Shown here piece by piece: positions 7,906-35,310 of a DNA stretch of 64,000 bases. The notes beneath the pieces were generated by a model. The model did not search any database and had not been told where the DNA came from. It saw only the letters and a program-made list of their open reading frames with translations. Made by a program: the position numbers and the translations under genes. This stretch comes from a virus. Within the stretch, counting starts at the first letter, position 1. Every line of letters begins with the position of its first letter. The DNA is taken from positions 1 through 64,000 of IMG/VR virus record IMGVR_UViG_3300033143_005193. One strand, given 5' to 3'.

Positions 7906-8772
7906 TTACTTAAAAAATGGATTACCAACTAATATATTATCTCTTAACAAATGAGTCTTACCCATTGGTTCCAAAAGAAATTCTATCTTTTTTATAAAGA
8001 ATTTATCTATCATCTTATTATAATCAATATCCACAACTTCATTAAATTCCTTTGGCCATCTATAAAATGTAATTGTTTCTATATTATATGGATTATCCTT
8101 TATATATAAAACCTTAGCTTTCATTGATTCATGAATATCTTCATAAAGATTTTCTATACCTAATTCTTTTAAAAGATAATTATAATTTGCAACACCTTTA
8201 ACGTGCCAAGGTGTTGATTTTATTGGTCTTCCATCTACTATATATTTTGAAAGATTGTTTATTCCAATATTAGCGGCTATTTCTTCTGGTGAAACTTTTT
8301 TTAATTCTTTCTTATATTGATTTATTTTCTTCACTAATTCCTTTTCATCAACATTTTTAAGAATCATATTCATTATAATTTTAAGTTTTTCTCTTATAGC
8401 TTCAGCACTATCAGATCTAACAATTTCAAGCCCTGTTACTGAAATCTTATCTACCGGTACACCTTCTTCATCAATACAATGATAAGCATATTTCTTTTTC
8501 TTAATAAAAAGAGCAGATTTTGCAATAATTTCTTGCTTTAGTTTTATCTTAAAATCTTCCACAACGGAATTATAATCAAGTTTTTGTGTTTCATTGAAAA
8601 TTCTATCATTTACATATTTTTCTATTTCTTTTGAAATTTTTCTAATATATTCAATCTTTTTTTCATCAGATAAACATATCCATTTATCTTTATTAGATAT
8701 ATTATCTAGTATAAATTTCTCAACACCAATATAACAACTATCAGTATCTCCATACAAAACATAATCATTCAT
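7906..8772 (-). CDS. Family B DNA polymerase, C-terminal subunit (gp43B-like)
   Basis: YGDTDS motif C, KKKYA, TGLEIVRSD; own GAGGA RBS. Confidence 0.92.
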   Translation of the reverse strand: MNDYVLYGDTDSCYIGVEKFILDNISNKDKWICLSDEKKIEYIRKISKEIEKYVNDRIFNETQKLDYNSVVEDFKIKLKQEIIAKSALFIKKKKYAYHCIDEEGVPVDKISVTGLEIVRSDSAEAIREKLKIIMNMILKNVDEKELVKKINQYKKELKKVSPEEIAANIGINNLSKYIVDGRPIKSTPWHVKGVANYNYLLKELGIENLYEDIHESMKAKVLYIKDNPYNIETITFYRWPKEFNEVVDIDYNKMIDKFFIKKIEFLLEPMGKTHLLRDNILVGNPFFK

Positions 8773-8820
8773 TGATAAATTCCTCTAATATTTTTAAACA
8801 TTTATCCTTTCATTAACATT

Positions 8821-10575
8821 TTAATCTATTTCATTTATAATATTTTTTATACTTTCTACTTTATCTATATTATTCAACATTTCATTGATAAAATTTTCAG
8901 TTTGTCGTATTGTTCTACGGCCACAACTTGTAATGGCTTCAGCAATATTTGTATTAAAATATCTTGAGTATGGAACAGAAGTAATACCAAATACAGCATT
9001 AAGAACGATCTTAATACTCCATTGTTTTGCAAATAATTGAGCAACTCTTTTATCTTTTGAATTTTTTCTTTTTATTTCCTTCATTTTATTTTTAGTTTCA
9101 ACTCTTTTATTAAAATATTCTCTCAAGACTCTAACTATAATACCTTCTTTTGTGTTGTTAAAAACCGAACCACAAGGAGCAATGGAAACCATTTTCTTTT
9201 CTACCATAAGATTGAATTTTTTTAACATTTTATTTTTAAATTCAATCCTATCACCGTTTATTTTATACATATTAAATGGAGGAAAATTATTATTCCGTGT
9301 ATAATATATAACCATATCTTCCGTTATACCAACAATTCTACCAACATAAGTTTCTGTTGACATATTAAGACAAATCATGTGTGAAGGATATGAGCTTGTT
9401 AAATCAACTGAAGAAACCCATTTATACATTCCCTTTTGTGGTTCTTTAACATAAGCAGCTTCAAAACCTTTTTGAGTACCACCTTCAAAAAACGGAGCAC
9501 ATAAATTATTTCTTCTATAATGTGTTAAAAGAGCACCTTCTATCAATTGTGTCATAGCATTATAATACTTCATCGGGCATTTTGTTAAAAGTGAAAGAGA
9601 TTGAACCAAATTTATATAACCTAATTTATTTTCTAACTGATTTACTCTTTCACAGTCAATAATGTTATATTCAACATATTTGTCATAATTTCCATTATAT
9701 AATTCATTAAGATTTTTATATTCAGAATAATCTAATTTACCTTCTTCAAGCTCTGTTTTAGAAACAAAATCAAGAGTATAACTTTCAAGTTTCTTTGGTG
9801 AATACCATCTATACAAATCATAATAATCAAGAATAGTTATACCAGCAATATCAATATTCATTGAATTATCTAATTTTGATCTCCATGTTCTAACAATATT
9901 AATTGGTGAAAGTTTATTATATTCATTTTCACCAACTATTTTAATCGAACGATTTATAATATATGGTAAGTCAAATAAAAAAATATTATAACCTGATATA
10001 ACATCAACACTACACTTATGAAAAAATGAAAGAAATTTCTTTATTAAAGAATACTCATCTTTACAATAAATGAACTTAACATTTTTCATTCTACCAGTAT
10101 ACGGTTTAGAACCAAATGTATAAGTTTTTCCTGTAGATCCATTTCTAATGGAAATAAGAGAAATTGGATCATTGGCGTCTTCTGGTTTTGGGAAACCATC
10201 ATAAGCTGCAACTTCAATATCTAAATAATAAATAGATAAATCAGGAACTTCTAAATCATCATCAGGAATAGTATGATATCTTTCAGATAAAAATTGAATT
10301 TCAGGTTTTACTTTATTTTCAAATATATCATATCTATCTTTAACAAAATCATAATAATCATTATAAGTATCAAAATCTCTTTTTACAACAGAAACACCAT
10401 TAAGTGTTTTGATATTACCTTTTTTACTCTTTAGAAAAACATAAGGCGTCCAGGGAATTTCAGTATAAAGGTTTTTACCATTCACTTGTTCCCATAAATG
10501 AATTTTACTCTTTTTTGTGTTATAAAAACAATTTTTAAAAATTTTTATCACCTCTCTTTCCATTATTATCTTCAT
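8821..10575 (-). CDS. Family B DNA polymerase, N-terminal subunit (gp43A-like: exonuclease, motifs A and B)
   Basis: DIEV ExoI, GYNIFLFD ExoII, YNIID ExoIII, DLTSSYPS motif A, KIVLNAVFG motif B. Confidence 0.92.
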   Translation of the reverse strand: MKIIMEREVIKIFKNCFYNTKKSKIHLWEQVNGKNLYTEIPWTPYVFLKSKKGNIKTLNGVSVVKRDFDTYNDYYDFVKDRYDIFENKVKPEIQFLSERYHTIPDDDLEVPDLSIYYLDIEVAAYDGFPKPEDANDPISLISIRNGSTGKTYTFGSKPYTGRMKNVKFIYCKDEYSLIKKFLSFFHKCSVDVISGYNIFLFDLPYIINRSIKIVGENEYNKLSPINIVRTWRSKLDNSMNIDIAGITILDYYDLYRWYSPKKLESYTLDFVSKTELEEGKLDYSEYKNLNELYNGNYDKYVEYNIIDCERVNQLENKLGYINLVQSLSLLTKCPMKYYNAMTQLIEGALLTHYRRNNLCAPFFEGGTQKGFEAAYVKEPQKGMYKWVSSVDLTSSYPSHMICLNMSTETYVGRIVGITEDMVIYYTRNNNFPPFNMYKINGDRIEFKNKMLKKFNLMVEKKMVSIAPCGSVFNNTKEGIIVRVLREYFNKRVETKNKMKEIKRKNSKDKRVAQLFAKQWSIKIVLNAVFGITSVPYSRYFNTNIAEAITSCGRRTIRQTENFINEMLNNIDKVESIKNIINEID

Positions 10576-11469: not shown

Positions 11470-12327
11470 ATGACAAAACTATACGAATATTTAAAAAAAG
11501 ATGAAAGTATCTTTCTTAATAAATTAAGTAAAGATATTCAGAAAAATTGTCAACCATTTATCAAAGAATTTAAATCATCTAATGTAAAATATTTTTTATA
11601 TAGAGCAACTAAAAAAAACATAAAATTCTATGATAAAATAATTCCAAGAAAAGATAGAAAACCAAGAGACACACCACTTCATATTCATAAATTAATTGAT
11701 GATATATTTAAGGATAAATTTGGATGGAAACCAAGAAGTGAAGGTGTATTTGTTAATCCTAATAAAACCGTAATATCAGAATATGGTAATGCTTATATTT
11801 TCATTCCAATAGGAAAATATGAATACTTATGGTCACCTAAAATAGATGATTTATATAATGAAATTAAATTAACAATAAGACTTAAATGCAATCTTCCAAT
11901 AAAAGAAATAACATTTGAAAAATTTAAAAACATTGATAAATTCAAAATAGAATATGAAAAATATAAAGAACCCGAATCTCTTGGTGGTTCCTGGTGGTAT
12001 AAAAACATAGACACAGGATATACTAAAAAATATAATGCAATAGATTATTTAAAAAAATTCAAAAATATTAAAGAAGATGAAATGGAAATATATATGTCAG
12101 ATGATTTTAGATGGATTCCAAAAATGACATTTGAAAAATTCATAGAAAAAAAATACAGAGAACTAATGAAAACAATTGAAAAAATTATAAAAGAAAAAGC
12201 AGAAACATATAAAACAAATAATTTAAAAGAACTGGTTTTAACTATTAATGAAGCAATGTTCAAATGTAATTCCTATTATCTTATAAATCCTAATTTTTTT
12301 GAAAAATTAAAAAATAATTTATTTTAA
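11470..12327 (+). CDS. ADP-ribosyltransferase-like paralogue 2
   Basis: LYRA...EGVFV...YG.AYIF...NEAMF; clear paralogue of 10657. Confidence 0.5.
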   Translation: MTKLYEYLKKDESIFLNKLSKDIQKNCQPFIKEFKSSNVKYFLYRATKKNIKFYDKIIPRKDRKPRDTPLHIHKLIDDIFKDKFGWKPRSEGVFVNPNKTVISEYGNAYIFIPIGKYEYLWSPKIDDLYNEIKLTIRLKCNLPIKEITFEKFKNIDKFKIEYEKYKEPESLGGSWWYKNIDTGYTKKYNAIDYLKKFKNIKEDEMEIYMSDDFRWIPKMTFEKFIEKKYRELMKTIEKIIKEKAETYKTNNLKELVLTINEAMFKCNSYYLINPNFFEKLKNNLF

Positions 12328-12333
12328 TAAAAA

Positions 12334-12607
12334 TTTTATGTTTACATTTTCTAAAATTCTGTTATAATAAGCATGGGTTCGCGCGGGGAAAGATATAGCA
12401 TTAGGGAATAGGATATTGTTAGTATGATAGAATAATGGAATGAAATAGGAATGAAATAATGATAGTATGATAGAATAATAAAATAATAAAATAATAAAAT
12501 AGAATGTTAGGATAGAATAGAATAGAATAGAATAGAATAGAATAGAATAGTGGAATAGAATGTTAGGATAGAATAATGGAATATTAGAATAGAATATTTT
12601 TAGAAAC
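12334..12607 (+). ncRNA. Promoter plus putative C-free non-coding transcript, copy 1
   Basis: GTTTAC-17-TATAAT with extended -10 TG (12340-12368); 12334-12447 identical to 30863-30976; no C from 12400 to 12607; (TAGAA)n run; no ORF. Confidence 0.5.
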
Positions 12608-12651
12608 AGTAATCCCTAAAGAATTAAACAAAGTTCAGTTCCATATTTATT

Positions 12652-12873
12652 TTAAATATAAATCACAAGAGCTTTTGTAAATGGATATACCAAAACAATA
12701 TATCCATTTTTTTCTAAATGTTTTTTTATATTTAAAGCGTGTTCATAATATTCTTCTTTATTATCAAATGAAAATTTCACATTTTTTTGTATTTTGTTCT
12801 TAACACCACTTTTAATTAATTCTGAATTAATCAAATCTAAAACATCAACATAAATTTCTCTAAAATTTCTCAA
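12652..12873 (-). CDS. Hypothetical protein
   Basis: ORF track; distant similarity to 12877 (F-x-N-(K/R)-E-x-Y...L...GY.V). Confidence 0.55.
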   Translation of the reverse strand: MRNFREIYVDVLDLINSELIKSGVKNKIQKNVKFSFDNKEEYYEHALNIKKHLEKNGYIVLVYPFTKALVIYI

Positions 12874-12876
12874 CTT

Positions 12877-13224
12877 CTATTTCTCCATATTATTATAAAG
12901 ATTTACCATACAATCCATACAACCTTCACAAGCCTTTTTATAGTTCTTTTCATTAAAACAAAATGATGAATCATCTACATCCCATGAAATATTCAAACAA
13001 TGATTAAAATTATTCATTTCAACGTCATAACCATAAACATGACTCAAAACATCAGCAATTCTCTTTCCATATAAATCATAAATTTCTCTATTTTTAAATT
13101 TATAAACAGTAGAAAATGAACCATTTTCTGACTTTATAAGATTATCAATTTCTTTAAAAATATCTTCAATAACATCTTCTTTATACTCCATTGATCTTTT
13201 AAATGCTTCTTTTGCTGTCAACAT
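12877..13224 (-). CDS. Hypothetical early protein
   Basis: AGGAG RBS and consensus promoter upstream. Confidence 0.65.
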   Translation of the reverse strand: MLTAKEAFKRSMEYKEDVIEDIFKEIDNLIKSENGSFSTVYKFKNREIYDLYGKRIADVLSHVYGYDVEMNNFNHCLNISWDVDDSSFCFNEKNYKKACEGCMDCMVNLYNNMEK

Positions 13225-13318: not shown

Positions 13319-14419
13319 TTATTCATGTTTCTTCAACAAAAATGAACAAAAATCACCAGCATACACTTTAACTAAATTTAAATCATTTTTTACTCGTGTT
13401 GGTGTTAATCTATATTCTCTATCACCCAAACCCAATTGACCATAAACATTATTACCAAAAGCATATAATTCACCTAAATCATTTATAGCTAATGAATGAT
13501 ATCCACTACAAACTATTTCTTTCCAATTTGATTCGCTTCCTATTCGTATTGGTATTAATCTATCTTCTTCATCACCTAAGCCTAATTGACCACAATAATT
13601 ATCACCCCAGGCATACAATTCACCATTATCATTAATAGCCAATGAATGATATCTTCCACAAGCAATTTTCTTCCAATTAGATTCGCTTTCTATTTTTGTT
13701 GGTGTTAATTCATCTCCTTCATCACCTAAACCCAACTGACCACAATCATTATTACCACAGGCATACAATTTACCTAAATCATTGATAGCTAATGAATGAT
13801 ATCTTCCACAAGCAATTTTCTTCCAATTTGAATCATTCCCTACTTGTATTGGTGTTGATCTATATTCTCTATTATCTAATCCTAATTGACCATGAATATT
13901 ATCACCCCAAGCATATAATTCACCAGTATCATTGATTGCTAATGAATAACACCAACCACAAGATATTTTAACCCAATTTGATTCGCTTCCTACTCGTGTT
14001 AGTGTTAATCTATTTTCCTCATCACCTAAACCCAATTGACCACAATCATTATTACCACAAGCATATAATTCACCTAAATCATTGATAGCTAATGAATGAT
14101 ATCCACCACAAGCTATTTCTTTCCAATTTGATTCATTTCCTACACGTGTTGGTGTTAATCTATCTTCTTCATCACCTAAGCCCAACTGACCACAATCATT
14201 ATAACCCCAAGAATACAATTCACCACGATTATTAATAGCTAATGAATAATCATAACCACAAGCTATTTTAATTACACTATCAACGCTACCAAGTAATGTT
14301 AATTGCAATATATTTGGAAGACCTTCTAAATTCAATCTATACCCACAAGCATATAAATCATAAATGGTTTCATTGTCAGATCTATCCAAAATTTCATTTG
14401 TTTTATAATACAATGTCAT
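13319..14419 (-). CDS. RCC1-repeat beta-propeller protein, copy 8
   Basis: 50-aa repeats GELYAWGxNxxGQLGLG...IACGxxHSLAI. Confidence 0.95.
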   Translation of the reverse strand: MTLYYKTNEILDRSDNETIYDLYACGYRLNLEGLPNILQLTLLGSVDSVIKIACGYDYSLAINNRGELYSWGYNDCGQLGLGDEEDRLTPTRVGNESNWKEIACGGYHSLAINDLGELYACGNNDCGQLGLGDEENRLTLTRVGSESNWVKISCGWCYSLAINDTGELYAWGDNIHGQLGLDNREYRSTPIQVGNDSNWKKIACGRYHSLAINDLGKLYACGNNDCGQLGLGDEGDELTPTKIESESNWKKIACGRYHSLAINDNGELYAWGDNYCGQLGLGDEEDRLIPIRIGSESNWKEIVCSGYHSLAINDLGELYAFGNNVYGQLGLGDREYRLTPTRVKNDLNLVKVYAGDFCSFLLKKHE

Positions 14420-14431
14420 CTTTATTCACCT

Positions 14432-15502
14432 TTATTCATGCTTTTTCAACAAAAAGGAACAAAAATCACCAGCATACACTTCTACCCAATTTGAATTGCT
14501 TCCTACTCGTATTGGTGTTAATCTATTTTCTTTATCACCTAATCCTAATTGACCACGAGTATTATTACCCCAAGCATATAATTCACCATCATCATTAATA
14601 GCTAATGAATGTGACCTACCACAAGCAATTTTTTTCCAGTTTGATTCATTTCCTATTCGTGTTGGCTCTGATCTATCTATTTCATCACCAGATCCCAATT
14701 GACCATTATAATTACGACCCCAAGCATACAATTCACCTAAATCATCAATGGCTAATGAACAATATTTTCCACAAGTTATTTTAACCCAATTTGAATTATT
14801 CCCTACCCTTGTTGGTGTTAATCTATTTTCATTATCACCCAAACCTAATTCACCATCACCATTATAACCCCAAGCATATAATTCACCTAAATCATTGATT
14901 GCTAATGAATGATATCCACCACAAGCAATTTCTTTCCAATTTGATTCGCTTCCTACTTGTGTTGGTTCTAATCTATTTTCCTCATCACCTAAACCCAATT
15001 GACCATCACCATTATAACCCCAAGCATACAATTCACCCAAATCATTAATAGCTAATGAATGACTCCCACCACAAGCAATTTTCTTCCAATTTGAATTATT
15101 CCCTACTTGTGTTGGTTCTGATTTATATTCTCTATTATCTAATCCTAATTGACCATGAATATTATACCCCCAAGTGTATAATTCACCACGATCATTGATA
15201 GCCAATGAATGATATCCACCACAAGCTATTTCTTTCCAATTTGATTCATTCCCAACCCGTGATATTATATTATCTTTACTATCATAATTCAAAGTATATA
15301 ATTCACCACGATTATTAATAGCTAACAAATGATAATTACCATAAAATATTTTAATTACACCATTAATACTACCAAGTAATATTAATTTTGACCCAAAAAA
15401 TAAACCTTTTAAATTCAATTTACACCCACAAGCATATAAATCATAAATGGTTTCATTGTCAGATCTATCCAAAATTTCATTTATTTTATAATACAATGAC
15501 AT
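14432..15502 (-). CDS. RCC1-repeat protein, copy 7
   Basis: Same repeats; first full blade shortened. Confidence 0.95.
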   Translation of the reverse strand: MSLYYKINEILDRSDNETIYDLYACGCKLNLKGLFFGSKLILLGSINGVIKIFYGNYHLLAINNRGELYTLNYDSKDNIISRVGNESNWKEIACGGYHSLAINDRGELYTWGYNIHGQLGLDNREYKSEPTQVGNNSNWKKIACGGSHSLAINDLGELYAWGYNGDGQLGLGDEENRLEPTQVGSESNWKEIACGGYHSLAINDLGELYAWGYNGDGELGLGDNENRLTPTRVGNNSNWVKITCGKYCSLAIDDLGELYAWGRNYNGQLGSGDEIDRSEPTRIGNESNWKKIACGRSHSLAINDDGELYAWGNNTRGQLGLGDKENRLTPIRVGSNSNWVEVYAGDFCSFLLKKHE

Positions 15503-15514
15503 TTTTATTTACCT

Positions 15515-16618
15515 TTATTCATGTTTTTTCAACAAAAATGAACAAAAACCACCAGCATACACTTCTTTCCAATTCAAACTATTTCCTACCTGTATTGGTA
15601 TTGATCTATTTATTTCATCACCTAATCCTAATTGACCATGAGTATTATTGCCCCAAGCATACAATTCACCATCATCATTAATAGCTAATGAATGACACAA
15701 CCCACAAGATATTTTTTTCCAATTTGAATCACTTCCAACTCGCGTTGGTATTAATTTGTTTTCATTATCACCTAAGCCTAATTGACCATCGCCATTATAA
15801 CCCCAAGCATATAATTCACCATGATTATCAATAGCCAATGAATGATCATAACCACAAGCTATTTCTTTCCAATTTGATTCATTTTCTATCCGTGTTGGTG
15901 TTAATCTATTTTTCCTATTATCCAATCCTAATTGACCATAATAATTACGACCCCAAGCATACAATTCACCTAAATCATTGATAGCTAATGAATGGTATCT
16001 TCCACAAGCTATTTTAATCCAATTTGATTCATTTCCAACTTGTGTTGGTTCTAATCTATTTAAAATATCACCTAATCCTAATTGACCACAATAATTATCA
16101 CCCCAAGCATACAATTCACCATGATCATTGATAGCTAATGAATAATATCCTCCACAAGCAATTTCTTTTCAATTTGAATTATTCCCTACCCTTGTTGGTG
16201 TTAATCTATTTTCATTATCACCCAAACCTAATTCACCATCACAATTATAACCCCAAGCATATAATTCACCTAAATCATTGATAGATAATGAATGGTATCC
16301 ACCACAAGCAATTTCTTTCCAATTTGATTCATTTTCTACACGTGTTGGTTCTAATCTATCTTCTTCATCACACAATACCAATTGACCACAATCATTATAA
16401 CCCCAAGAATACAATTCACCACGATTATTAATAGCCAATGAATGAAATATACCACAAGCTATTTTAATTACATTATTAACGCTACCAAGTAGCAACGTTA
16501 ATTGTGATGTATCTGGAAAACCATTTAAATTTAATTTATACCCACAAGCATACAAATCATAAATGGTTTCATTGTCAAATTTATTCAAAATTTCATTTGT
16601 TTTATAATACAATGACAT
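15515..16618 (-). pseudogene. RCC1-repeat protein, copy 6, interrupted by one in-frame TGA
   Basis: ORFs 16169-16618 and 15515-16114 share a frame; TGA at 16169-16171 replaces the conserved Trp (NSN*KEIACG). Confidence 0.85.
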
Positions 16619-16632
16619 TTTCTTATTTACCT

Positions 16633-17733
16633 TTATTCATGCTTCTTCAACAAAAATGAACAAAAATCACCAGCATATATTTTGATCCAATTTGATTCAC
16701 TTCCTACTCGTGTTGGTGTTGATCTATTTTCATTATCACCTAATCCCAATTGACCACAATCATTATGACCCCAGTCATATAATTCACCACGATCATTAAT
16801 AGCTAATGAATGATCATAACCACAAGCTATTTTTTTCCAATTAGATTCATTTCCAACTCGTATTTGTTCTAATCTATCTTCTTCATCACCTAAACCTAAT
16901 TGACCATAATAATTATTACCACAAGCATACAATTCACCATAATTATTAATAGCCAATGAATGATCATAACCACAAACTATTTCTTTCCAATTTGAATTAT
17001 TTCCTACTCGTGTTGGTATTAATCTATTTTTCCTATTATCCAATCCTAATTGACCATGATAATTACGACCCCAAGCATACAATTCACCACAATCATTAAT
17101 AGCTAATGAATAATATCCACCACAAGATACATTAACCCAATTTGAATCATTCCCCACCCTTGTTGGTGTTAATCTATCCATTCTATTACCTAAGCCTAAT
17201 TGACCATAACTATTATAACCCCAAGCATACAATTCACCACGATCATTAATAGCCAATGAATGATATCCACCACAAACTATTTTAACCCAATTTGATTCAT
17301 TCCCTACTCGCGTTGGTGTTAATCTATCTATTCTATTACCTAAGCCTAATTGACCATAACCATTATAACCCCAAGAATATAATTCACCCAAATCATTAAT
17401 AGCTAACGAATAACACCACCCACAATCTATTTCTTTCCAATTTGATTCGCTTCCTACTCGTGTTGGTGTTAATCTATTTACTATATTACAAAGACCCAAT
17501 TGACCATAACCATTATAACCCCAAGAATATAATTCACCAGTATCATTAATAGCTAAAAAATGACTACCATTACAAGCTATTTTAATTACATTATCAACGC
17601 TACCGAGTAATGTTAATTGTGATATATTTGGAAAACCATTTAAATTTAATTTATACCCACAAGCATATAAATCATAAATGGTTTCATTGTCAGATCTATC
17701 CAAAATTTCATTTGTTTTATAATACAATGACAT
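16633..17733 (-). CDS. RCC1-repeat protein, copy 5
   Basis: 366 aa, same repeats. Confidence 0.95.
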   Translation of the reverse strand: MSLYYKTNEILDRSDNETIYDLYACGYKLNLNGFPNISQLTLLGSVDNVIKIACNGSHFLAINDTGELYSWGYNGYGQLGLCNIVNRLTPTRVGSESNWKEIDCGWCYSLAINDLGELYSWGYNGYGQLGLGNRIDRLTPTRVGNESNWVKIVCGGYHSLAINDRGELYAWGYNSYGQLGLGNRMDRLTPTRVGNDSNWVNVSCGGYYSLAINDCGELYAWGRNYHGQLGLDNRKNRLIPTRVGNNSNWKEIVCGYDHSLAINNYGELYACGNNYYGQLGLGDEEDRLEQIRVGNESNWKKIACGYDHSLAINDRGELYDWGHNDCGQLGLGDNENRSTPTRVGSESNWIKIYAGDFCSFLLKKHE

Positions 17734-17747
17734 TTTCTTATTTACCT

Positions 17748-18848
17748 TTATTCATGCTTTTTCAACAAAAATGAACAAAAATCACCAGCATATATTTTGA
17801 TCCAATTTGATTCACTTCCTACTCGTGTTAGTGTTGATCTATATTCTCTATCACCAAGACCCAATTGACCACATTCATTATGACCACAAGAATATAATTC
17901 ACCACTGTCATTAATAACTAACGAATGACATAACCCACAAGCTATTTTTTTCCAATTAGATTCATTTCCAACTCGTGTTAGTGTTGATCTATTTACTATA
18001 TCACCTAATCCTAATTGACTATAATAATTACTACCACAAGCATATAATTCACCTAAATCATTTATAGCTAATGAATAATATCTTCCACAAGCAATTTTCT
18101 TCCAATTTGAATTATTCCCTACTCGTGTTGGTGTTGATCTATTTTCATTATCACCCAATCCCAATTGACCATAATTATTATCACCCCAAGCATGTAATTC
18201 ACCACGATTATTAATAGCCAATGAATGAACTGAACCGCAAGCTACTTTAACCCAATTCGAACTATTTCCTACTTGTGTTGGTTCTAATCTATTTACTGTA
18301 TCACCAAGACCCAATTGACCATAATAATTACTACCCCAAGCATACAATTCACCAGTATCATTGATTGCTAATAAATGATATCTTCCACAAAATATATCAA
18401 CCCAATTTGATTCATTCCCTACTCGCGTTGGTGTTAATCTATTTACTGCATCACCAAGACCCAATTGACCATAACCATTATAACCCCAAGCATATAATTC
18501 ACCAATATTATTAATAGCTAATGAATGACTCCCACCACAAGATATTTCTCTCCAATTTGAATTATTTCCTACCCGCATTGGTGTTGATCTATTTACTATA
18601 TTACCAAGACCCAATTGACCATAACCATTATAACCCCAAGCATACAATTCACCATCATCATTAATAGCTAAAAAATGACTACCATTACAAGCTATTTTAA
18701 TTACATTATCAACACTACCAAGTAACGTTAATTGTGATGTATCTGGAAGACCATTTAAATTTAATTTATATCCACAAGCATACAAATCATAAATAGTTTC
18801 ATTATCAAATTTATTCAAAATTTCATTTGTTTTATAATATAATGACAT
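17748..18848 (-). CDS. RCC1-repeat protein, copy 4
   Basis: 366 aa, same repeats. Confidence 0.95.
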   Translation of the reverse strand: MSLYYKTNEILNKFDNETIYDLYACGYKLNLNGLPDTSQLTLLGSVDNVIKIACNGSHFLAINDDGELYAWGYNGYGQLGLGNIVNRSTPMRVGNNSNWREISCGGSHSLAINNIGELYAWGYNGYGQLGLGDAVNRLTPTRVGNESNWVDIFCGRYHLLAINDTGELYAWGSNYYGQLGLGDTVNRLEPTQVGNSSNWVKVACGSVHSLAINNRGELHAWGDNNYGQLGLGDNENRSTPTRVGNNSNWKKIACGRYYSLAINDLGELYACGSNYYSQLGLGDIVNRSTLTRVGNESNWKKIACGLCHSLVINDSGELYSCGHNECGQLGLGDREYRSTLTRVGSESNWIKIYAGDFCSFLLKKHE

Positions 18849-18860
18849 CTTTATCCGCCT

Positions 18861-19961
18861 TTATTCATGATTTTTCAACAAAAATGAACAAAAATCACCA
18901 GCATATATACAGACCCAATTTGATTCATTTCCTACTCGCGTTGGTATTAATCTATATTCTCTATCACCCAAACCCAATTGACCATAATTATTATCACCCC
19001 AAGTATATAATTCACCTAAATCATTAATAGATAATGAATGACACAACCCACAAGCTATTTTTTTCCAATTAGATTCATTTCCAACTCGTGTTGATATTGA
19101 TCTATTTTTCCTATCATCCAATCCCAATTGACCATAATAATTATCACCAAAAGCATATAATTCACCACGATCATTAATGGCTAATGAATGATTATAACCA
19201 CAAGCTATTTCTTTCCAATTTAATTCACTTCCTGTTCGTGTTGGTATCGATCTATTTTTCCTATCATCCAATCCCAATTGACCATAATAATTATCACCAA
19301 AAGCATACAATTCACCACGATCATTAATGGCTAATGAATGAAACCAACCACAAGATATTTTAACCCAATTTGATTCGCTTCCTACTCGTGTTGGTGTTAA
19401 TCTATCTTCTTTATCACCTAAACCCAATAGACCACAATCATTATAACCCCAAGTATATAATTCACCTAAATCATTTATAGCTAATGAATGATATCTTCCA
19501 CAAGCTATTTTAACCCAATTCAAACTATTTCCAACTCGTGTTGGTGTTAATCTATATTCTCTATCACCCAAACCCAATTGACCATAATAATTACGACCCC
19601 AAGCATATAATTCACCATGATTATTAATAGCTAATGAATAACACCAACCACAAGATATTTTAACCCAATTTGATTCACTTCCTACTCGTGTTGGTGTTGA
19701 TCTATTTTCTTTGTCACCTAATCCTAATTGACCGTAAGTGTTTTCACCACAAACATATAATTTACCAGAACCATCGATAGTTAATAAATGGTTACTACTA
19801 AAAGATATTTTAATCATGTTATTAATACTACCAATTAATGTTAATCCTGGTATAAAATATAAATCTTCTGGATTCAATTCATACCCACAAGCATATAAAT
19901 CATAAATGGTTTCATTATTAGATCTATCCAAAATTTCATTTGTTTTATAATACAATGTCAT
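18861..19961 (-). CDS. RCC1-repeat protein, copy 3
   Basis: 366 aa, same repeats. Confidence 0.95.
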   Translation of the reverse strand: MTLYYKTNEILDRSNNETIYDLYACGYELNPEDLYFIPGLTLIGSINNMIKISFSSNHLLTIDGSGKLYVCGENTYGQLGLGDKENRSTPTRVGSESNWVKISCGWCYSLAINNHGELYAWGRNYYGQLGLGDREYRLTPTRVGNSLNWVKIACGRYHSLAINDLGELYTWGYNDCGLLGLGDKEDRLTPTRVGSESNWVKISCGWFHSLAINDRGELYAFGDNYYGQLGLDDRKNRSIPTRTGSELNWKEIACGYNHSLAINDRGELYAFGDNYYGQLGLDDRKNRSISTRVGNESNWKKIACGLCHSLSINDLGELYTWGDNNYGQLGLGDREYRLIPTRVGNESNWVCIYAGDFCSFLLKNHE

Positions 19962-19973
19962 CTTTATTCACCT

Positions 19974-21077
19974 TTATTCATGCTTTTTCAACAAAAAGGA
20001 ACAAAAATCACCGGCATGTACTCCTACCCAATTTGATTCATTTCCTACTCGTGTTAGTGTTAATCTATTTATTTCATCACCTAAGCCTAATTGACCATAA
20101 ACATTATTACCAAAAGCATATAATTCACCACGATCATTAATAGCTAATGAATGACACACCCCACAAGATATTTTAATCCAATTTGATTTATTCCCTACTC
20201 GTGTTGGTAATAATCTTCTTTCTGTATCACCCAAACCTAACTGACCATCACCATTATAACCCCAAGCATATAATTCATCACTATCATTAATAGCTAATGA
20301 ATAATATTTTCCACAAGATATATTAACCCAATTTGATTCAATTCCTACCCTTGTTGGTGTTAACCTATCTTTCCTATCACCTAATCCTAATTGACCATAA
20401 TAATTACGACCCCAAGCATACAATTCACCACAATCATTAATAGCTAATGAATAATATCCACCACAAGATGCATTAACCCAATTTGAATCATTCCCCACCC
20501 TTGTTGGTGTTAATCTATCCATTCTATTACCTAAGCCTAATTGACCATAACTATTATAACCCCAAGCATACAATTCACCATTATTATTGATAGCCAATGA
20601 ATGATATCTTCCACAAAATACATCAACCCAATTTGAATCATTCCCTATTCTTGTTGGTGTTGATCTATCTTCTTTATCACCCAAACCTAACTGACCACAA
20701 TCATTATAACCCCAAGCATATAATTCACCATTATTATTGATAGCCAAAAAATAACACCACCCACAAGCTATTTCTTTCCAATTTGATTCACTTCCTATTC
20801 GTGTTGGTTCCGATCTATCTATTTTATCACCCAAACCCAATTGACCAAAAACATTATAACCACAAGCATATAATTCACCATGATTGTTTATTGCTAACGA
20901 ATTACTACTATTACAAGCTATTTTAATTACATTATCAATACTACCAAGTAGCGTTAATTGTAATATATCTGAAAAACCTTCTAAATTCAATTTAGATCCA
21001 CAAGCATACAAATCATAAATGGTTTCATTATTAAATCTATCCAATATTTCATTTGTTTTATACATTTTCTTATTCAC
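19974..21077 (-). CDS. RCC1-repeat protein, copy 2
   Basis: Same repeats; real start may be the downstream MYKTNE. Confidence 0.95.
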   Translation of the reverse strand: MNKKMYKTNEILDRFNNETIYDLYACGSKLNLEGFSDILQLTLLGSIDNVIKIACNSSNSLAINNHGELYACGYNVFGQLGLGDKIDRSEPTRIGSESNWKEIACGWCYFLAINNNGELYAWGYNDCGQLGLGDKEDRSTPTRIGNDSNWVDVFCGRYHSLAINNNGELYAWGYNSYGQLGLGNRMDRLTPTRVGNDSNWVNASCGGYYSLAINDCGELYAWGRNYYGQLGLGDRKDRLTPTRVGIESNWVNISCGKYYSLAINDSDELYAWGYNGDGQLGLGDTERRLLPTRVGNKSNWIKISCGVCHSLAINDRGELYAFGNNVYGQLGLGDEINRLTLTRVGNESNWVGVHAGDFCSFLLKKHE

Positions 21078-21079
21078 CT

Positions 21080-21880
21080 TTATTCATGCTTTTTCAACAA
21101 AAAAGAACAAAAATCACCAGCATATATTTCGACCCAATTTGATTCATTTCCTACTCGTGTTAGTGTTGATCTATTTTCTTTATCATCTAATCCCAACTGA
21201 CCATGATTATTATGACCACAGGCATACAACCCACCACGATCATTAATAGCTAACGAATGATTATAACCACAAGATATTTCTTTCCAATTTGATTCATTTC
21301 TAACTTGTGTTGGTTCTAATCTATTTAAAATATCACCTAAGCCTAATTGACCTTTATCATTATCACCCCAAGCATACAATTCACCACGATCATTAATAGC
21401 CAATAAATGATATTCACCACAAGCTATTTTTCTCCAATTTGAATCATTCCCTATTCGTGTTGGTTCTAATCTATTTAAAATATCACCTAAGCCTAATTGA
21501 CCATAATAATTATCACCCCAAGAATATAATTCACCACGATCATTAATAGCCAATGAATGATATCTTCCACAAAACACATCAACCCAATTTGAATCATTTC
21601 CTATTCTTATTAGTATTAATCTATTTACTGTATCACCAAGACCCAATTGACCATAACCATTATAACCACAAGAATATAATTCACCACGATCATTTATTGC
21701 TAATGAATTACTACTATTACAAGCTATTTTAATTACATTATTAACGCTACCGAGTAATGTTAATTGAGATCCAAAAAACAAATCCTGAGAATTTAATTTA
21801 TACCCACAAGCATACAAATCATAAATGGTTTCATTATTAGATCTATCCAAAATTTCATTTGTTTTATAACACAATAACAT
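21080..21880 (-). CDS. RCC1-repeat protein, copy 1 (266 aa, two blades fewer)
   Basis: Start reassigned to MLLCYKTNE (ATG 21880) by homology with paralogues; a promoter lies inside the longer ORF call. Confidence 0.9.
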   Translation of the reverse strand: MLLCYKTNEILDRSNNETIYDLYACGYKLNSQDLFFGSQLTLLGSVNNVIKIACNSSNSLAINDRGELYSCGYNGYGQLGLGDTVNRLILIRIGNDSNWVDVFCGRYHSLAINDRGELYSWGDNYYGQLGLGDILNRLEPTRIGNDSNWRKIACGEYHLLAINDRGELYAWGDNDKGQLGLGDILNRLEPTQVRNESNWKEISCGYNHSLAINDRGGLYACGHNNHGQLGLDDKENRSTLTRVGNESNWVEIYAGDFCSFLLKKHE

Positions 21881-21914
21881 TTTTTCAAAATACCCTTCGA
21901 TATATTTTTTCAAT

Positions 21915-21943
21915 ATTATACTATAAAACATGAAAAAAGTAAA
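21915..21943 (-). promoter_or_regulatory. Sigma70-type early promoter of the RCC1 operon
   Basis: TTTACT-17-TATAAT. Confidence 0.7.
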
Positions 21944-21993
21944 TTTTTTCATCAAAAAATGATAAATATACAAAAAATAGGAGGAATATATAA

Positions 21994-28296: not shown

Positions 28297-28393
28297 ATAT
28301 CATTCCTTTCAAAATCAATGTTTTATTATGTATATTTACCATATATAATACAATATGTAAATATGGAATGTTTTAAAGAGATTAGAATTGAAA

Positions 28394-28745
28394 TGATGTA
28401 TTGTTTTAAAAAAGATTGGGGTTGAAATAGAAAATGGCCCCGCATTGATGTATTGTTTTAAAAAAGATTGGGGTTGAAATAGAAAATGGCCCCGCATCGC
28501 AAAATTTTATTGAAAGAGATTGGAGCTAAAATGGAAAATGGCCCCGCATCAATGTATTGTTTTAAAAAAGATTGGGGCTGAAATAGAAAATGGCCCCGCA
28601 TCGCAAAATTTTACATGTGAGTATGCCTTAAAAAAGATTGGGGCTGAAATAGAAAATGGCCCCGCATCGCAAAATTATATTGAAAAAGATTGTGACCAGA
28701 ACCCAAAATGGCCCCGCATTGCAAAATTTTACATGTGAGTATGTG
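28394..28745. repeat. Six 52-bp-period repeats with core AAAATGGCCCCGCAT
   Basis: Cores at 28431, 28483, 28535, 28587, 28653, 28705. Confidence 0.95.
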
Positions 28746-28775
28746 CCCCCGTTGATCCCCATACCCCCACCCCCC
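28746..28775 (-). other. G-quadruplex-forming motif
   Basis: Minus strand G6-T-G5-TAT-G4-ATCAAC-G5. Confidence 0.7.
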
Positions 28776-28862
28776 AAAACTTTTTCCACCCCGGACTATT
28801 TTTTCCTAATGATTTCAATTATTTATCAAATTCGCATAAAATTAGGTTTTTTTTGGTATTTA

Positions 28863-28928
28863 TTAATTTTTTCTTAATTTTTTCTTAATTTTTTCTTAAT
28901 TTTTTCTTAATTTTTTCTTAATTTTTTT
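28863..28928. repeat. 11-bp tandem repeat TTAATTTTTTC, five copies plus a partial
   Basis: Direct reading. Confidence 0.95.
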
Positions 28929-28930
28929 AC

Positions 28931-29182
28931 TGAATGTAATATTGCATTCATTAGTTGAATGGTATTCATTAGCTGAATGGTATTCATTAGCTGAATGGTA
29001 TTCATTAGCTGAATGGTATTCATTAGTTGAATGGTATTCATTAGTTGAATGGTATATGAACATCATACATTGACTGAATGGTATTCATTAATTGAATGTA
29101 ATTCATTAATTGAATAGTATTCACCGACTGAATGTAATTCATACCAACGGCTGAATGTAATTCATTAATTGAATGGTATTAT
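28931..29182. repeat. 18-bp-period array of palindromic boxes TGAAT-N3-ATTCA
   Basis: Intact boxes at 28956, 28974, 28992, 29010, 29028, 29075, 29093, 29111, 29129, 29152. Confidence 0.92.
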
Positions 29183-29205
29183 ATTACTTTAAATCAACCT
29201 AAAGA

Positions 29206-29228
29206 CGCTTAGTAGTAACTACTAAGCG
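29206..29228. repeat. Perfect palindrome with 11-bp arms
   Basis: CGCTTAGTAGT-A-ACTACTAAGCG. Confidence 0.95.
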
Positions 29229-29304
29229 AAGTAAATTTTTAGAGAAGACTTCTTTACTTCCAAGAGAAGACTTCCCCCTAGGTAAGAAATTTTTTATCTG
29301 ATGG

Positions 29305-29451
29305 TTTATGCGCCTATAGGGGAAAATGAGACCAATTTACCCTAATTTGAGCTTATTTCCTTAAAATACAAAAGAATTAGATCAAATTAATATATTTTTT
29401 ATACCATATTATACCATAATTTTTTATGCGCCCATAGGGAAAAATGAGACC
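29305..29451 (-). repeat. Two inverted relatives of the 118-bp repeat unit
   Basis: TTTATGCGCC(T/C)ATAGGG(G/A)AAAATGAGACC at 29305 and 29423; resembles reverse complement of CCCTATGGCGGCATAAA. Confidence 0.75.
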
Positions 29452-29574
29452 CTTATAACACCTTTTCTTTATTTTATAAGGATTTCCTAAATTTGATCTA
29501 AAAACATTGAAAACAAAGAAAAAGATAACCAAAACTTGTTAAGAAAAATATAGCATTTTTTATTGATTTTAGAC

Positions 29575-30402
29575 TTTTATTGATATTAAAGGAAAATGGA
29601 TCAAGTGGGTGAGGTTTGGCCCTATGGCAGAGACCAGTATATAAGGAAAATTCCTTAGTAAAAAATACTAAATTTGGTCTGATTTTATTAATATTAAAGG
29701 AAATAAGCTTAATTTTAGCTAAAAAAGTGAGGTCTGGCCCTATGGCGGCATAAAATGATGAAAAATTGAAAAACATTGATATTAAAGGAAAATGGATTAA
29801 GTGGGTAAGGTTTGGCCCTATGGCAGAGACAAAAATATGGTTAAGTGGGTTTAGTATTTTTTACTAAGCTTAATCTGATTTTATTAATATTAAAGGAATT
29901 GAGCTTAATTTAAGCTAAATTTGGTTAGATTTGGCCCTATGGCAGAGACCAGGATATAAGAGATCTTTTTTAGTATTTTTTACTTAATTTAATCTGATTT
30001 TATTAATATTAAAGGAATTGAGCTTAATTTAAGCTAAATTTGGTTAGATTTGGCCCTATGGTGGCATAAAATGATGAAAAATACTTAATTTGGTCTGATT
30101 TTATTAATATTAAAGGAATTGAGCTTAATTTAAGCTAAATTTGGTTAGGTTTGGCCCTATGGCAGTTACCGGATTAATAAAAATTTTCCTTAGTAAAAAA
30201 TACTAAATTTAATCTAAAAATGTTGAAAATAAAGAAATTGAGCTTAAATTAAGCTAAAAAAGTGAGGTTTGGCCCTATGGCGGAGACAAAAATATGACCA
30301 GGGAGGCTTAGTATTTTTTACTAAGCTTAATCTGATTTTATTAATATTAAAGGAATTGAGCTTAATTTAAGCTCAATTTGGTTAGGTTTGGCCCTATGGC
30401 AG
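29575..30402 (+). repeat. Eight-unit array, period about 118 bp, core TGGCCCTATGG
   Basis: Cores at 29617, 29735, 29813, 29932, 30051, 30152, 30270, 30389. Confidence 0.95.
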
Positions 30403-30676
30403 TTAACCAACTACCCAACTACCCCGTTACACAGTTAACCAATTAACACGTTTAAGTAAATGAAGTATGTTTTGTGAACAATATTCATTAAATGAACTTG
30501 AGATGGAAAATGAGTTCTATGTGTTGTTTGGGTGGGTGAAGATTATACAGTGTCCCAATTTTTCCAATAATTTTCGACATTTACAACATTTTTAACAATT
30601 AATCCAACAATTTTTCCAACAATAGCCACAATTTTTCTAATAATTTCCAATAGTTACAACAATTTTAACAATTAAT

Positions 30677-30727
30677 CCAGCCAATAATACCAGCCAATAA
30701 TACCAGCCAATAATACCAGCCAATAAA
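30677..30727. repeat. 13-bp tandem repeat CCAGCCAATAATA, about four copies
   Basis: Direct reading. Confidence 0.95.
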
Positions 30728-30862
30728 TCATATTATATTATATTACTTTATTTGCTTAAAAAAAATCTAACAATACCTTTTCACCATCATAATCATTATA
30801 ACAACATCCATTATAATACTTGTTTTATTTGACTTAAAGAAAATTAAATAAAAATAATTATT

Positions 30863-31118
30863 TTTTATGTTTACATTTTCTAAAATTCTGTTATAATAAG
30901 CATGGGTTCGCGCGGGGAAAGATATAGCATTAGGGAATAGGATATTGTTAGTATGATAGAATAATGGAATGAAATATATTAGAATAATGTTAGGATGATA
31001 GAATGAAATATTAGATTGTTAGAAGAATATTAGGATATGATTGTTAGGATATTAATATTGTTAGAATGTTAGGGGGGATTTTAAGATAATATGAATGTTA
31101 GAATATTAGGATGTTGGA
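30863..31118 (+). ncRNA. Promoter plus putative C-free non-coding transcript, copy 2
   Basis: First 114 bp identical to 12334-12447; no C from 30929 to 31118; no ORF. Confidence 0.5.
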
Positions 31119-31121
31119 CTC

Positions 31122-31367
31122 TCAATAATTATTCTTTAGAATATCATAACTTTTGTTCTTTACATATAAGGCGAATTCTTTAGATGTTTTCTCATCAAAT
31201 CCATCATTATAATATGATCTAAATACCTCATCTTGTATAATACTTATCATTTTACCATAACCATTCTTTCCTATAAAATTTGGAATTTTATTCTTTATAA
31301 GTGATTTTATATATATAGATGTTATGGTATCAAGTTCTTCTTTTCTTTCTTTTGATAAATCTTTCAT
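31122..31367 (-). CDS. Hypothetical protein
   Basis: ORF track; coupled to 31367. Confidence 0.55.
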   Translation of the reverse strand: MKDLSKERKEELDTITSIYIKSLIKNKIPNFIGKNGYGKMISIIQDEVFRSYYNDGFDEKTSKEFALYVKNKSYDILKNNY

Positions 31368-31615
31368 TAAAAATCTTTTCCTTTTATAATAAGATCACAT
31401 GAGGGAAAATCTACATAAGATGGACTTTCGATTTCATAAGAAGATTTATCTTGATAAAAACATTCTAGTATAGGATCTTCTTGTAGAATCATTCTACGTT
31501 TAGGTAATCTATAATCTTTTATATCATTATCATATAAATCTTTTTGTATAATATTCAAATACCTTTTAAACATTTCTAATAATTGTTGTTTGATTATTAT
31601 ATCGTAATAACCCAT
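31367..31615 (-). CDS. Hypothetical protein
   Basis: ORF track; AAGGA RBS. Confidence 0.55.
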   Translation of the reverse strand: MGYYDIIIKQQLLEMFKRYLNIIQKDLYDNDIKDYRLPKRRMILQEDPILECFYQDKSSYEIESPSYVDFPSCDLIIKGKDF

Positions 31616-31630
31616 ATTATAAAATCCTTA

Positions 31631-31876
31631 TTATAATAATACAATGTCTTCAATAATATCTGGATAAATACTACAATGTTCACTATAATAATACATTAGA
31701 TTTCCAGTATCATCAAATTCTGTAGTACATTTTTTTAGGTGAAATTGATCTGTTTTAACATAAAAATATTGATCACCGTATTGATCGTAACCAATACCAT
31801 CTACTATGAGAAAATCATAATGAATATGATTATTACTTATTGGTCTTACTTTATCACCTTTTTTAAATTTTCCCAT
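31631..31876 (-). CDS. Small SH3/KOW-like protein
   Basis: KFKKGDKVR; AGGAG RBS. Confidence 0.6.
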   Translation of the reverse strand: MGKFKKGDKVRPISNNHIHYDFLIVDGIGYDQYGDQYFYVKTDQFHLKKCTTEFDDTGNLMYYYSEHCSIYPDIIEDIVLL

Positions 31877-34858: not shown

Positions 34859-35128
34859 TTATAATAATAGAGTAAAGTAATGTAGAAGAGAATAATCATC
34901 TTGGATTTCAGAAAGATTTGTCAATAAGGATTTGTAATAATTATCATTATCATTATTATATATTTTTCTGCAAAAATTTCTAATGTCATTTGTGTATTTT
35001 TTTAATATTCTTGGTGATTTATTAACGAAATTAACAATAAATTCTTTTAAAAAATCATATTCATCAATATTATATATATTTATATCATAATATAGGTTCC
35101 ATTTATTAATTAATATAGAAATTTTCAT
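34859..35128 (-). CDS. Hypothetical protein
   Basis: AAGGA RBS; TTTACA-16-TACAAT upstream. Confidence 0.5.
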   Translation of the reverse strand: MKISILINKWNLYYDINIYNIDEYDFLKEFIVNFVNKSPRILKKYTNDIRNFCRKIYNNDNDNYYKSLLTNLSEIQDDYSLLHYFTLLL

Positions 35129-35211
35129 TAGAATTTTCCTTTCATTGGCTTTCTATGTGAATTGTAACAGAAAAATAGAAAATGTAAATGAAAAAAATAA
35201 AATTTTTTATA

Positions 35212-35219
35212 TATAAATA
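35212..35219 (+). promoter_or_regulatory. Late promoter TATAAATA for the baseplate operon
   Basis: Exact consensus upstream of structural genes. Confidence 0.6.
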
Positions 35220-35310
35220 CTATAAAATAGAATAAAAATAATTATAATTATTTATGTTTACTTTTTAGTAAAAAATTATGATAATTATCATTATAAGGAG
35301 AAATGGATAA

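Follow-up and report, generated by a model that had tools for sequence, protein, structure and literature searches.

A duplicated promoter cassette with a cytosine-free downstream tract in an uncultured T4-like phage and its cytosine-poor counterparts in related phages

The window, i. e. the whole 64-kb stretch of DNA that was analyzed, harbors two copies of a block of 114 bp on the plus strand (12334–12447 and 30863–30976), each of which leads into a tract devoid of cytosine (C). This stretch forms the first 64 kb of a phage record of 110,776 bp with a G+C content of 27% and a CheckV completeness estimate of 46%. The record encodes a split family B polymerase of the T4 type with 30–32% identity to gp43 of T4-like cyanophages and rhizobiophages, as well as a gp32 homologue, 22 tRNAs and a tmRNA. 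The phage is therefore a distant, uncultured relative of T4, and the DNA sequencing runs that contain it are sediment samples; no RNA run is listed for the locus. Genes for gp59, CsrA, TRAP and Hfq were not found within the 46%-complete fragment. The split of the polymerase is located at 8700–10575 on the minus strand, where a 584-aa ORF ends at 8821 and a second ORF, starting about 60 nt downstream, begins with MNDYVLYGDTDS and hence carries the catalytic YGDTDS motif. The 22 tRNA genes and the tmRNA gene (tag ADDYYTELAKAA) lie beyond the window at 102707–110161 of the record, all on the minus strand, with one tRNA-Gln directly following a consensus TTTACT-N17-TATAAT promoter.

The two copies of the block match exactly at an offset of 18,529 bp, as had been stated in an initial reading made from the sequence only, and comprise an AT-rich upstream part, a promoter, a GC-rich start region and the first 48 nt of the C-free tract. 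The predicted σ70-type promoter of copy 1 (12341–12368) is composed of TTTACA at 12341–12346, a 16-nt spacer and TATAAT at 12363–12368, preceded by TG at 12360–12361; copy 2 has the same TTTACA-16-TATAAT sequence at 30870–30897. Both thus match 11 of the 12 σ70 consensus positions and exhibit an extended −10 element (TG one base before the −10), and the GTTTAC-17-TATAAT promoter proposed earlier is the same site in a shifted register. The segment from the −10 to GCATT (12363–12402 in copy 1, 30892–30931 in copy 2) is identical in the two copies and, according to an alignment (A2) and pattern matches, near-invariant in all relatives described below. It contains a GC block, GGGTTCGCGCGGGG, at 12375–12388 and 30904–30917, a sequence that was not found in a literature search. 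Transcription is predicted to start near G12375–12377, as judged from the distance to the −10 only, and both units are probably transcribed. A short frame (MGSRGE...) begins at an ATG within the invariant start region (CATGGG) and spans 10–12 codons in the window and in the related locus L002 and 32 codons in L012, while in L001 (2453–2537, minus strand) it continues in frame into the downstream gene. Since the length of this frame is not conserved, it probably does not encode a leader peptide.

Tract 1 (12400–12606, plus strand) spans 207 nt with 106 A, 58 T and 43 G, and tract 2 (30929–31118, plus strand) 190 nt with 75 A, 68 T and 47 G. The length given previously for tract 2 was accurate, that for tract 1 was one nucleotide too long (208 nt), given that C occurs at 12399 and 12607. 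Both tracts open with the same 48-nt seed, which is followed by 159 nt of reiterated seed words in tract 1, including (TAGAA)8 and (ATAAAATA)4, and by 142 nt in tract 2 with eight irregularly spaced TTAGRA units and no clean tandem array. They are the longest C-free runs on either strand of the whole record; the next longest measures 103 nt and corresponds to a minus-strand gene's promoter region. Among 124,578 sense-strand windows of 200 nt within ORFs of this phage and two relatives, none contains three or fewer C. A 146-nt C-free run does occur at 1856–2001 of L014 within an ordinary 122-aa ORF that is unlinked to the leader, and coding sequence of this clade can go approximately 150 nt without C, leader or not. 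In agreement with the sequence-only reading, the tracts contain no ORF (none of at least 20 aa on the plus strand of either tract) and run into convergent minus-strand genes, whose ends lie at 12652 and 31122. The gene facing tract 2 (31122–31367) has its stop codon 3 nt beyond the tract.

Several origins of the tracts could be dismissed. Coding under another reading was rejected, as there is no ORF, no start codon on the minus strand (because that strand lacks G throughout the tracts) and no suppressor among the 22 tRNAs. A hypermutated pseudogene was likewise rejected: Smith-Waterman comparisons of both tails with the leader-driven gene of L002 and L014, with that of L001 and L012 (type A) and with five paralogues, run once with raw sequences and once with C collapsed to T, returned no score above shuffles. 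Nor is the C-terminal motif of the leader-driven gene's family left in 12560–12700. A known RNA family was excluded, since neither gathering nor E-value thresholds yielded an Rfam match for the tracts.

When the start region was used as an exact and as a degenerate query, at least four further loci emerged in three or four phages, i. e. L001, L002 (= L013), L012 (= L049) and L014. Tract, seed, leader and terminator were searched in viral, metagenome, genome and GenBank phage collections. Among the matches listed, the other hits to the leader and the remaining queries were chance matches in GC-rich or AT-rich genomes, the tract was not found elsewhere in the collections searched, and polymerase relatives at about 52% identity do not carry the leader. 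All true loci agree in the −35, the −10 and 34 of the 40 positions that extend from the −10 to GCATT, the promoter spacer varies among the four relatives, and everything downstream differs (alignment A2). In L002 and L014 (type B), the module drives a 197-aa protein of the phrog_11975 family, in L001 and L012 an unrelated protein of 223 aa.

The plus-strand gene upstream of copy 1 (11470–12327), itself a member of the phrog_11975 family with 58% amino acid identity to 2208–3146 of L002, is a synteny anchor with L002, L014 and L009, and the convergent gene facing the unit (12652–12873) lies at the end of a minus-strand block and has homologues in L002 and L014 that are likewise directed towards the leader-driven gene. 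As both of these relatives carry homologues of 11470–12327, 12652–12873 and 12877–13224 in the same order, the C-free tract occupies the place of their 197-aa gene. Since this promoter with its start region precedes two unrelated genes in the relatives, and one of these loci is syntenic with copy 1, the units in the window represent gene-less variants of an otherwise ordinary transcription unit. Copy 1 ends with a terminator-like hairpin at 12681–12713 (9-bp stem followed by T7), the only hairpin with a T-run on the plus strand. It is conserved in L002 and L014, where it closely follows the stop codon that terminates the leader-driven gene, with a compensatory change in the stem (AT..AT versus AC..GT; alignment A1). 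Promoter and terminator are thus kept and the reading frame is gone, so that an RNA of approximately 340 nt is predicted for copy 1. For copy 2, no terminator was found before ~32.4 kb, and its transcript would run antisense into 31122–31876.

The initial reading had held that homologous loci should not show normal C content. Homologues with ordinary genes do exist, but their first ~200 nt are poor in C. Counted in 50-nt bins after the GC block, C occurs 1, 2, 1, 1 and 1 times in L001 before rising to 4, 4, 2, 4 and 6, in L012 1, 4, 0, 0 and 3 times before 8 and 6, in L002 3, 1, 2 and 2 times before 7, 4, 5 and 7, and in L014 4, 2, 2 and 2 times before the same 7, 4, 5 and 7. The first ~200 nt of the relatives, though coding, accordingly hold 5, 5, 8 and 10 C per 200 nt versus a mean of about 21 (2–4% versus 10%). 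Maximum-likelihood change-points in C content fall at +239 (L001), +198 (L012), +206 (L002) and +206 (L014), compared to +205 and +188 for the two units of the window. When C was counted from +25 to +225 at 32 consensus-type promoter sites of five records, the six leader loci ranked lowest (1, 3, 5, 5, 8 and 10 versus 11–39). Strong promoters as a general cause of low C were therefore rejected, for only the leader-bearing sites among the 32 have the zone. Control ORF starts were as C-poor as the zone in 0 of 252 cases for type A and in 1 of 252 for type B, and the zone differs from the remainder of the same gene with p = 0.0013 and 0.0048 in the two genes. This extends to the encoded proteins: residues with C in every codon (P, H, Q, T, A) account for 3 of 60 and 3 of 55 positions in the zone versus 15–18% in the remainder. 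In type A, a C content of 2% is held in two relatives that differ at 20% of the zone positions.

The other properties of the zone are less uniform. In the relatives it is not rich in G (16–18%), and the base that takes the place of the missing C is T in one gene but A in the other (not T in type B). Because the replacement base differs between the genes, simple deamination is not a sufficient account. Avoidance of RNA structure as a common property was rejected, since the folding of the L001 and copy 2 zones is comparable to that of controls, with the L001 zone surpassing 85% of them. As the homologous loci are C-poor downstream of this start region, a strand-specific zone linked to the promoter is conserved, which fits an R-loop or a nascent-RNA module. 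The conserved unit is the predicted promoter with the GC start block and a low-C zone of about 200 nt, whatever its content. Taken together, these comparisons show that a small clade of uncultured T4-like phages shares a putative early transcription start module that is transferable.

How the tails of the window came about can be read from their words. Of the unique tails, 89% and 75% are covered by 6-mers of the seed (38% and 32% in Markov controls) and 57% and 46% by its 8-mers (8% and 6% in the controls). The claim that composition is conserved and sequence is not thus holds insofar as the tails differ, but it needs qualification, as both are made of words of the same 48-nt seed. This seed starts with the ribosome-binding region of the lost gene, which is also present in L002 (TTAGGGAATA). 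Tail 1 contains nested tandem arrays with periods of 5, 8, 11 and 43, and in tail 2 none were scored by TRF. In contigs of a close strain, the end of tail 2 carries a locally duplicated segment with an 11-nt insert devoid of C; the contigs of other strains break at the repeat. The tails, which fill the zone in this phage as a fast-changing array, have therefore grown by repeated local duplication and inherited most of their freedom from C from a C-free seed, the length of which (48 nt) is ordinary for this genome. The evidence for a continued exclusion of C in the tails is modest: variant copies include 9–15 A/G contexts and no T/C, where ~3–4.5 T/C would be expected from the T/C:A/G ratio of 0.3 measured between relatives. 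Sense-strand A/G differences also exceed C/T differences by approximately 3.4:1 between G001 and L012 and between G002 and L014, including positions outside the low-C zone, which points to a general strand asymmetry of substitution in the clade.

A tentative first place among the explanations is given to a promoter-proximal R-loop zone similar to oriF and oriG of T4, because this reading alone makes use of all three of the G-cluster start, the zone with G over C and the T4-type replisome. T4 origins pair a promoter with an unwinding element downstream of it, their transcripts persist in R-loops and prime leading-strand synthesis, and the origins can overlap genes.(PMC3016281) Several origins exist per genome, with oriF(uvsY) and oriG(34) depending on MotA-dependent middle promoters and oriE combining an early promoter with iterons; the origins have no common sequence motif, and their unwinding element of ~50 bp needs no strand asymmetry.(PMC3016281) By analogy, the host RNA polymerase would fire early from the promoter, and the G-cluster start of the RNA would stay on, or re-anneal to, the template. 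The strongly G-over-C, purine-rich zone could then let the hybrid spread over ~200 bp, leaving a C-free, single-stranded non-template strand as entry site for the replisome, with the RNA serving as primer as at oriF and oriG. The gene-less units might in this case be the module pared down to the job of priming and entry.

This reading draws on several similarities. As in oriF and oriG, a promoter of the early or middle type that by its sequence would be read by the host polymerase precedes a putative easily opened zone and can also serve a gene, and the phage possesses both a gp43-like polymerase and gp32. Like oriE, copy 2 is located at the edge of a 2.5-kb gene-free repeat field, which it closes near a local minimum of cumulative GC skew. 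The hybrid-minus-duplex energy, an approximate nearest-neighbour estimate, is favourable for the tracts of the window (top 0.3% and 2.6% of windows for tracts 1 and 2, respectively), and their purine content amounts to 73% and 64%. Concerning duplex stability, tail 1 includes duplex that ranks among the weakest 0.2–0.4% of the genome and tail 2 reaches only the 3–14% range, in a genome that is A+T-rich as a whole. On the other hand, the phage deviates from the T4 origins by its invariant GC start block, a ~200-nt zone defined by low C and a plain σ70 promoter. It also departs from the established rule for R-loop formation, QmRLFS, which demands three clusters of at least three G or two of at least four G spaced by 1–10 nt, followed by at least 100 nt with at least 40% G.(PMC4489302) G clusters at the 5' end of the transcript and a long non-template stretch of G over C are indeed shared with GC-skew R-loop promoters. 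Yet there are only two clusters (GGG-N7-GGGG, i. e. G3 and G4), the next GGG being 15 nt off in the window and absent in L001 and L012, and the G content is 21% and 25% in the window and 16–18% in the relatives. The model was trained on mammalian loci, and the genome of this phage has 27% G+C. The R-loop origin suggested in the sequence-only reading has been somewhat strengthened by the conserved promoter-linked low-C zone; its specific claims are weaker, given G density and clusters that fall short of the R-loop rule, as well as hybrid-versus-duplex energies in the zones of the relatives that are unexceptional (q 0.12–0.18). Two further aspects count against it: conservation concerns the low C itself rather than a high content of G or purines, and the absence of C in the tails is largely inherited from the seed.

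A rather doubtful alternative is a neutral orphan cassette, i. e. a recombination-prone element that has lost its gene, carries filler grown by slippage from the C-free seed and gives rise to an RNA that, if made, does nothing. It has a precedent in the promoter-early stem-loop cassettes (PeSLs) of T4-like phages, repeated strong σ70-like promoters that mediate gene gain, loss and replacement and precede various genes, most of them orphans, in related phages.(PMC2839356, PMC4122927) The module shares with PeSLs a near-identical strong σ70-like promoter (two copies here, four in the relatives), an AT-rich upstream part and a G-run element, and it marks points of gene replacement, as the cassette precedes a phrog_11975 gene, the unrelated 223-aa gene or none. 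It differs in the position of its GC block: PeSLs have a GGGG...CCCC stem-loop terminator upstream of the promoter, whereas the block is found downstream of the −10, lacks a C-run to pair with and is unpaired in folds. No recombination between the two copies was observed in this phage. Moreover, PeSLs have not been reported to impose a base composition downstream, while this module is followed by the low-C zone. The gene at the tract position in the syntenic relatives, the coverage of the tails by seed 6-mers and 8-mers far above Markov controls, the local duplication with the 11-nt insert in the close strain and the lack of the tract elsewhere in the collections searched all favor neutrality, and the low C of the relatives would then have to be a mutational footprint or a by-product of the amino acid composition of two N-termini. 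However, this leaves unexplained why the zone is equally ~200 nt long in six loci with three unrelated contents and why it is restricted to leader-bearing promoters. The perfect promoter in both gene-less copies and the terminator retained in copy 1 are also not expected, and the C of type B is not replaced by T, contrary to plain deamination.

The remaining explanations assign a function to the RNA or to the opposite strand. An untranslated early RNA of ~340 nt, largely unstructured and proof against Rho, might act as a decoy, with 11–19 UAGRA units titrating an RNA-binding factor of host or phage, the 30S subunit or a nuclease; some of these units (UAGGA) resemble weak ribosome-binding sites. 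The strong promoter and the conserved terminator of copy 1 would suit such an RNA, and folding of the predicted RNAs does not surpass that of shuffled sequence (z +1.6 for copy 1, +0.9 for copy 2). From the building units originally proposed, TAGAA, TTAGG and GAAT, it is TAGRA that proved to be enriched in both tails, about 6-fold (19 in tract 1 and 11 in tract 2 versus 2–3 expected, p<0.0005), and AGGAT, AGGAA and TAGGA are enriched 6–8-fold upstream of the start codons of this phage. Motif enrichment would, however, be expected anyway from duplication of one seed, and stop codons in the tails are not enriched over dinucleotide content. Known RNAs of this type offer limited guidance. A TRAP site comprises 9–11 (G/U)AG triplets with 2–3-nt spacers, and CsrB/RsmZ sponges contain many GGA, mostly in hairpin loops. 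Like these, the predicted noncoding RNAs have many short purine-rich repeat units, including eight UAG with 2-nt spacers in copy 1. The TRAP-type UAG-NN pattern invoked initially does not stand, though, as its 2-nt spacers are confined to the (TAGAA)8 run of copy 1 (eight consecutive UAG-UAG gaps), and copy 2 has spacers of 4–26 nt with none of 2–3 nt. Unlike in CsrB/RsmZ, GGA is at the level expected from dinucleotides (8 and 9 versus 5.8 and 7.1, p>0.2), stable hairpins and an Rfam match are lacking, and no gene for CsrA, TRAP or another matching RNA-binding protein was found in the fragment. As the decoy also leaves the low C in the translated zones of the relatives unexplained, we consider it unlikely.

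Rho utilization needs C-rich, G-poor and unstructured RNA, so that Rho cannot load on an RNA without C. By sequence, the plus-strand RNA is thus the exact opposite of a Rho site and immune, and the minus-strand RNA would be an ideal one. A Rho loading site or transcription boundary on the minus strand, which would stop read-through of the minus-strand gene blocks with the aid of the convergent promoter, can be argued from this. On that strand, the tracts are free of G with 21–25% C and contain 37 and 38 YC dinucleotides (one per ~5 nt), their excess of C over G is in the top 0.1% of windows, and they begin 3 nt (tract 2) and 45 nt (tract 1) after minus-strand stop codons, with no minus-strand intrinsic terminator found at either site. 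The C-rich, G-poor stretch of at least ~80 nt after the last gene that characterizes rut sites is present. Still, the low-C zone of the relatives lies inside plus-strand genes and accompanies the start region of that strand rather than the ends of minus-strand genes, and this explanation is accordingly regarded as quite improbable. Slightly better prospects, though still distinctly poor, are assigned to a portable module that imposes exclusion of C on the first ~200 nt of whatever it drives, in response to a C-dependent host activity on the nascent RNA or the displaced strand (Rho, a C-specific nuclease or a deaminase), the gene-less copies then being a pure decoy or origin. An evasion of Rho is much less needed in the relatives, whose zone is translated, than in an untranslated RNA. 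Finally, the duplex itself might be a field of protein-binding half-sites (TTAGNA), reminiscent of iterons or a centromere. TTAGRA occurs eight times in tail 2 and four times in tail 1 in a single orientation, and other iteron-like arrays adjoin copy 2. With irregular spacing (8–37 bp), spacers that are also free of C, which a duplex site does not require, no such array in the relatives and no enrichment of the motif elsewhere in the genome, this is the least credible proposal.

The gene-less units are best described as a variant of the promoter-linked cassettes of T4-like phages, combined with an undescribed composition rule. Irrespective of whether an origin is involved, the leader-linked low-C zone of ~200 nt needs a cause, as it bends the amino acid composition of two unrelated proteins. 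Candidates are evasion of Rho, evasion of a nuclease or strand-specific deamination at a promoter-proximal hybrid. To our knowledge, sequence does not allow the origins of uncultured T4-like phages to be located. Should the module be an R-loop origin, it would represent the first T4-type origin recognizable by a motif and a composition rule, in a minimal, gene-free form that would be easy to test on a plasmid. At the same time, the mechanical origin of a C-free tract from a reiterated short C-free seed calls for caution in reading similar tracts as selected.

Other parts of the genome display unusual repeats or composition as well. The ORF-free region of 2.5 kb upstream of copy 2 (28300–30860) is made up of distinct repeat families without Rfam match, namely 52-nt units with GGGGC...GCCCC hairpins (28395–28743), six copies of TTTCTTAATTT (28859–28927), twelve 18-nt palindromic boxes ATTCATTAGCTGAATGGT (28946–29180), about eight units of 101–110 nt (29560–30405) and four copies of CCAGCCAATAATA (30673–30726). 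Many rearrangement joints fall into this region in contigs of close strains, and it may function as an origin, as a control region or as a field of small RNAs. For every window size tried, the least stable duplex in the 110-kb record is located at 35066–35295, where minus-strand transcription gives way to plus-strand transcription; this site is a candidate for an alternative origin or divergent promoters. Between the two copies of the module, 13319–21973 accommodates seven or eight head-to-tail genes of ~366 aa each, which encode a full RCC1-repeat propeller (Pfam RCC1, E 2e-92) and contain internal 150-nt repeats, with joints between copies in strain contigs.
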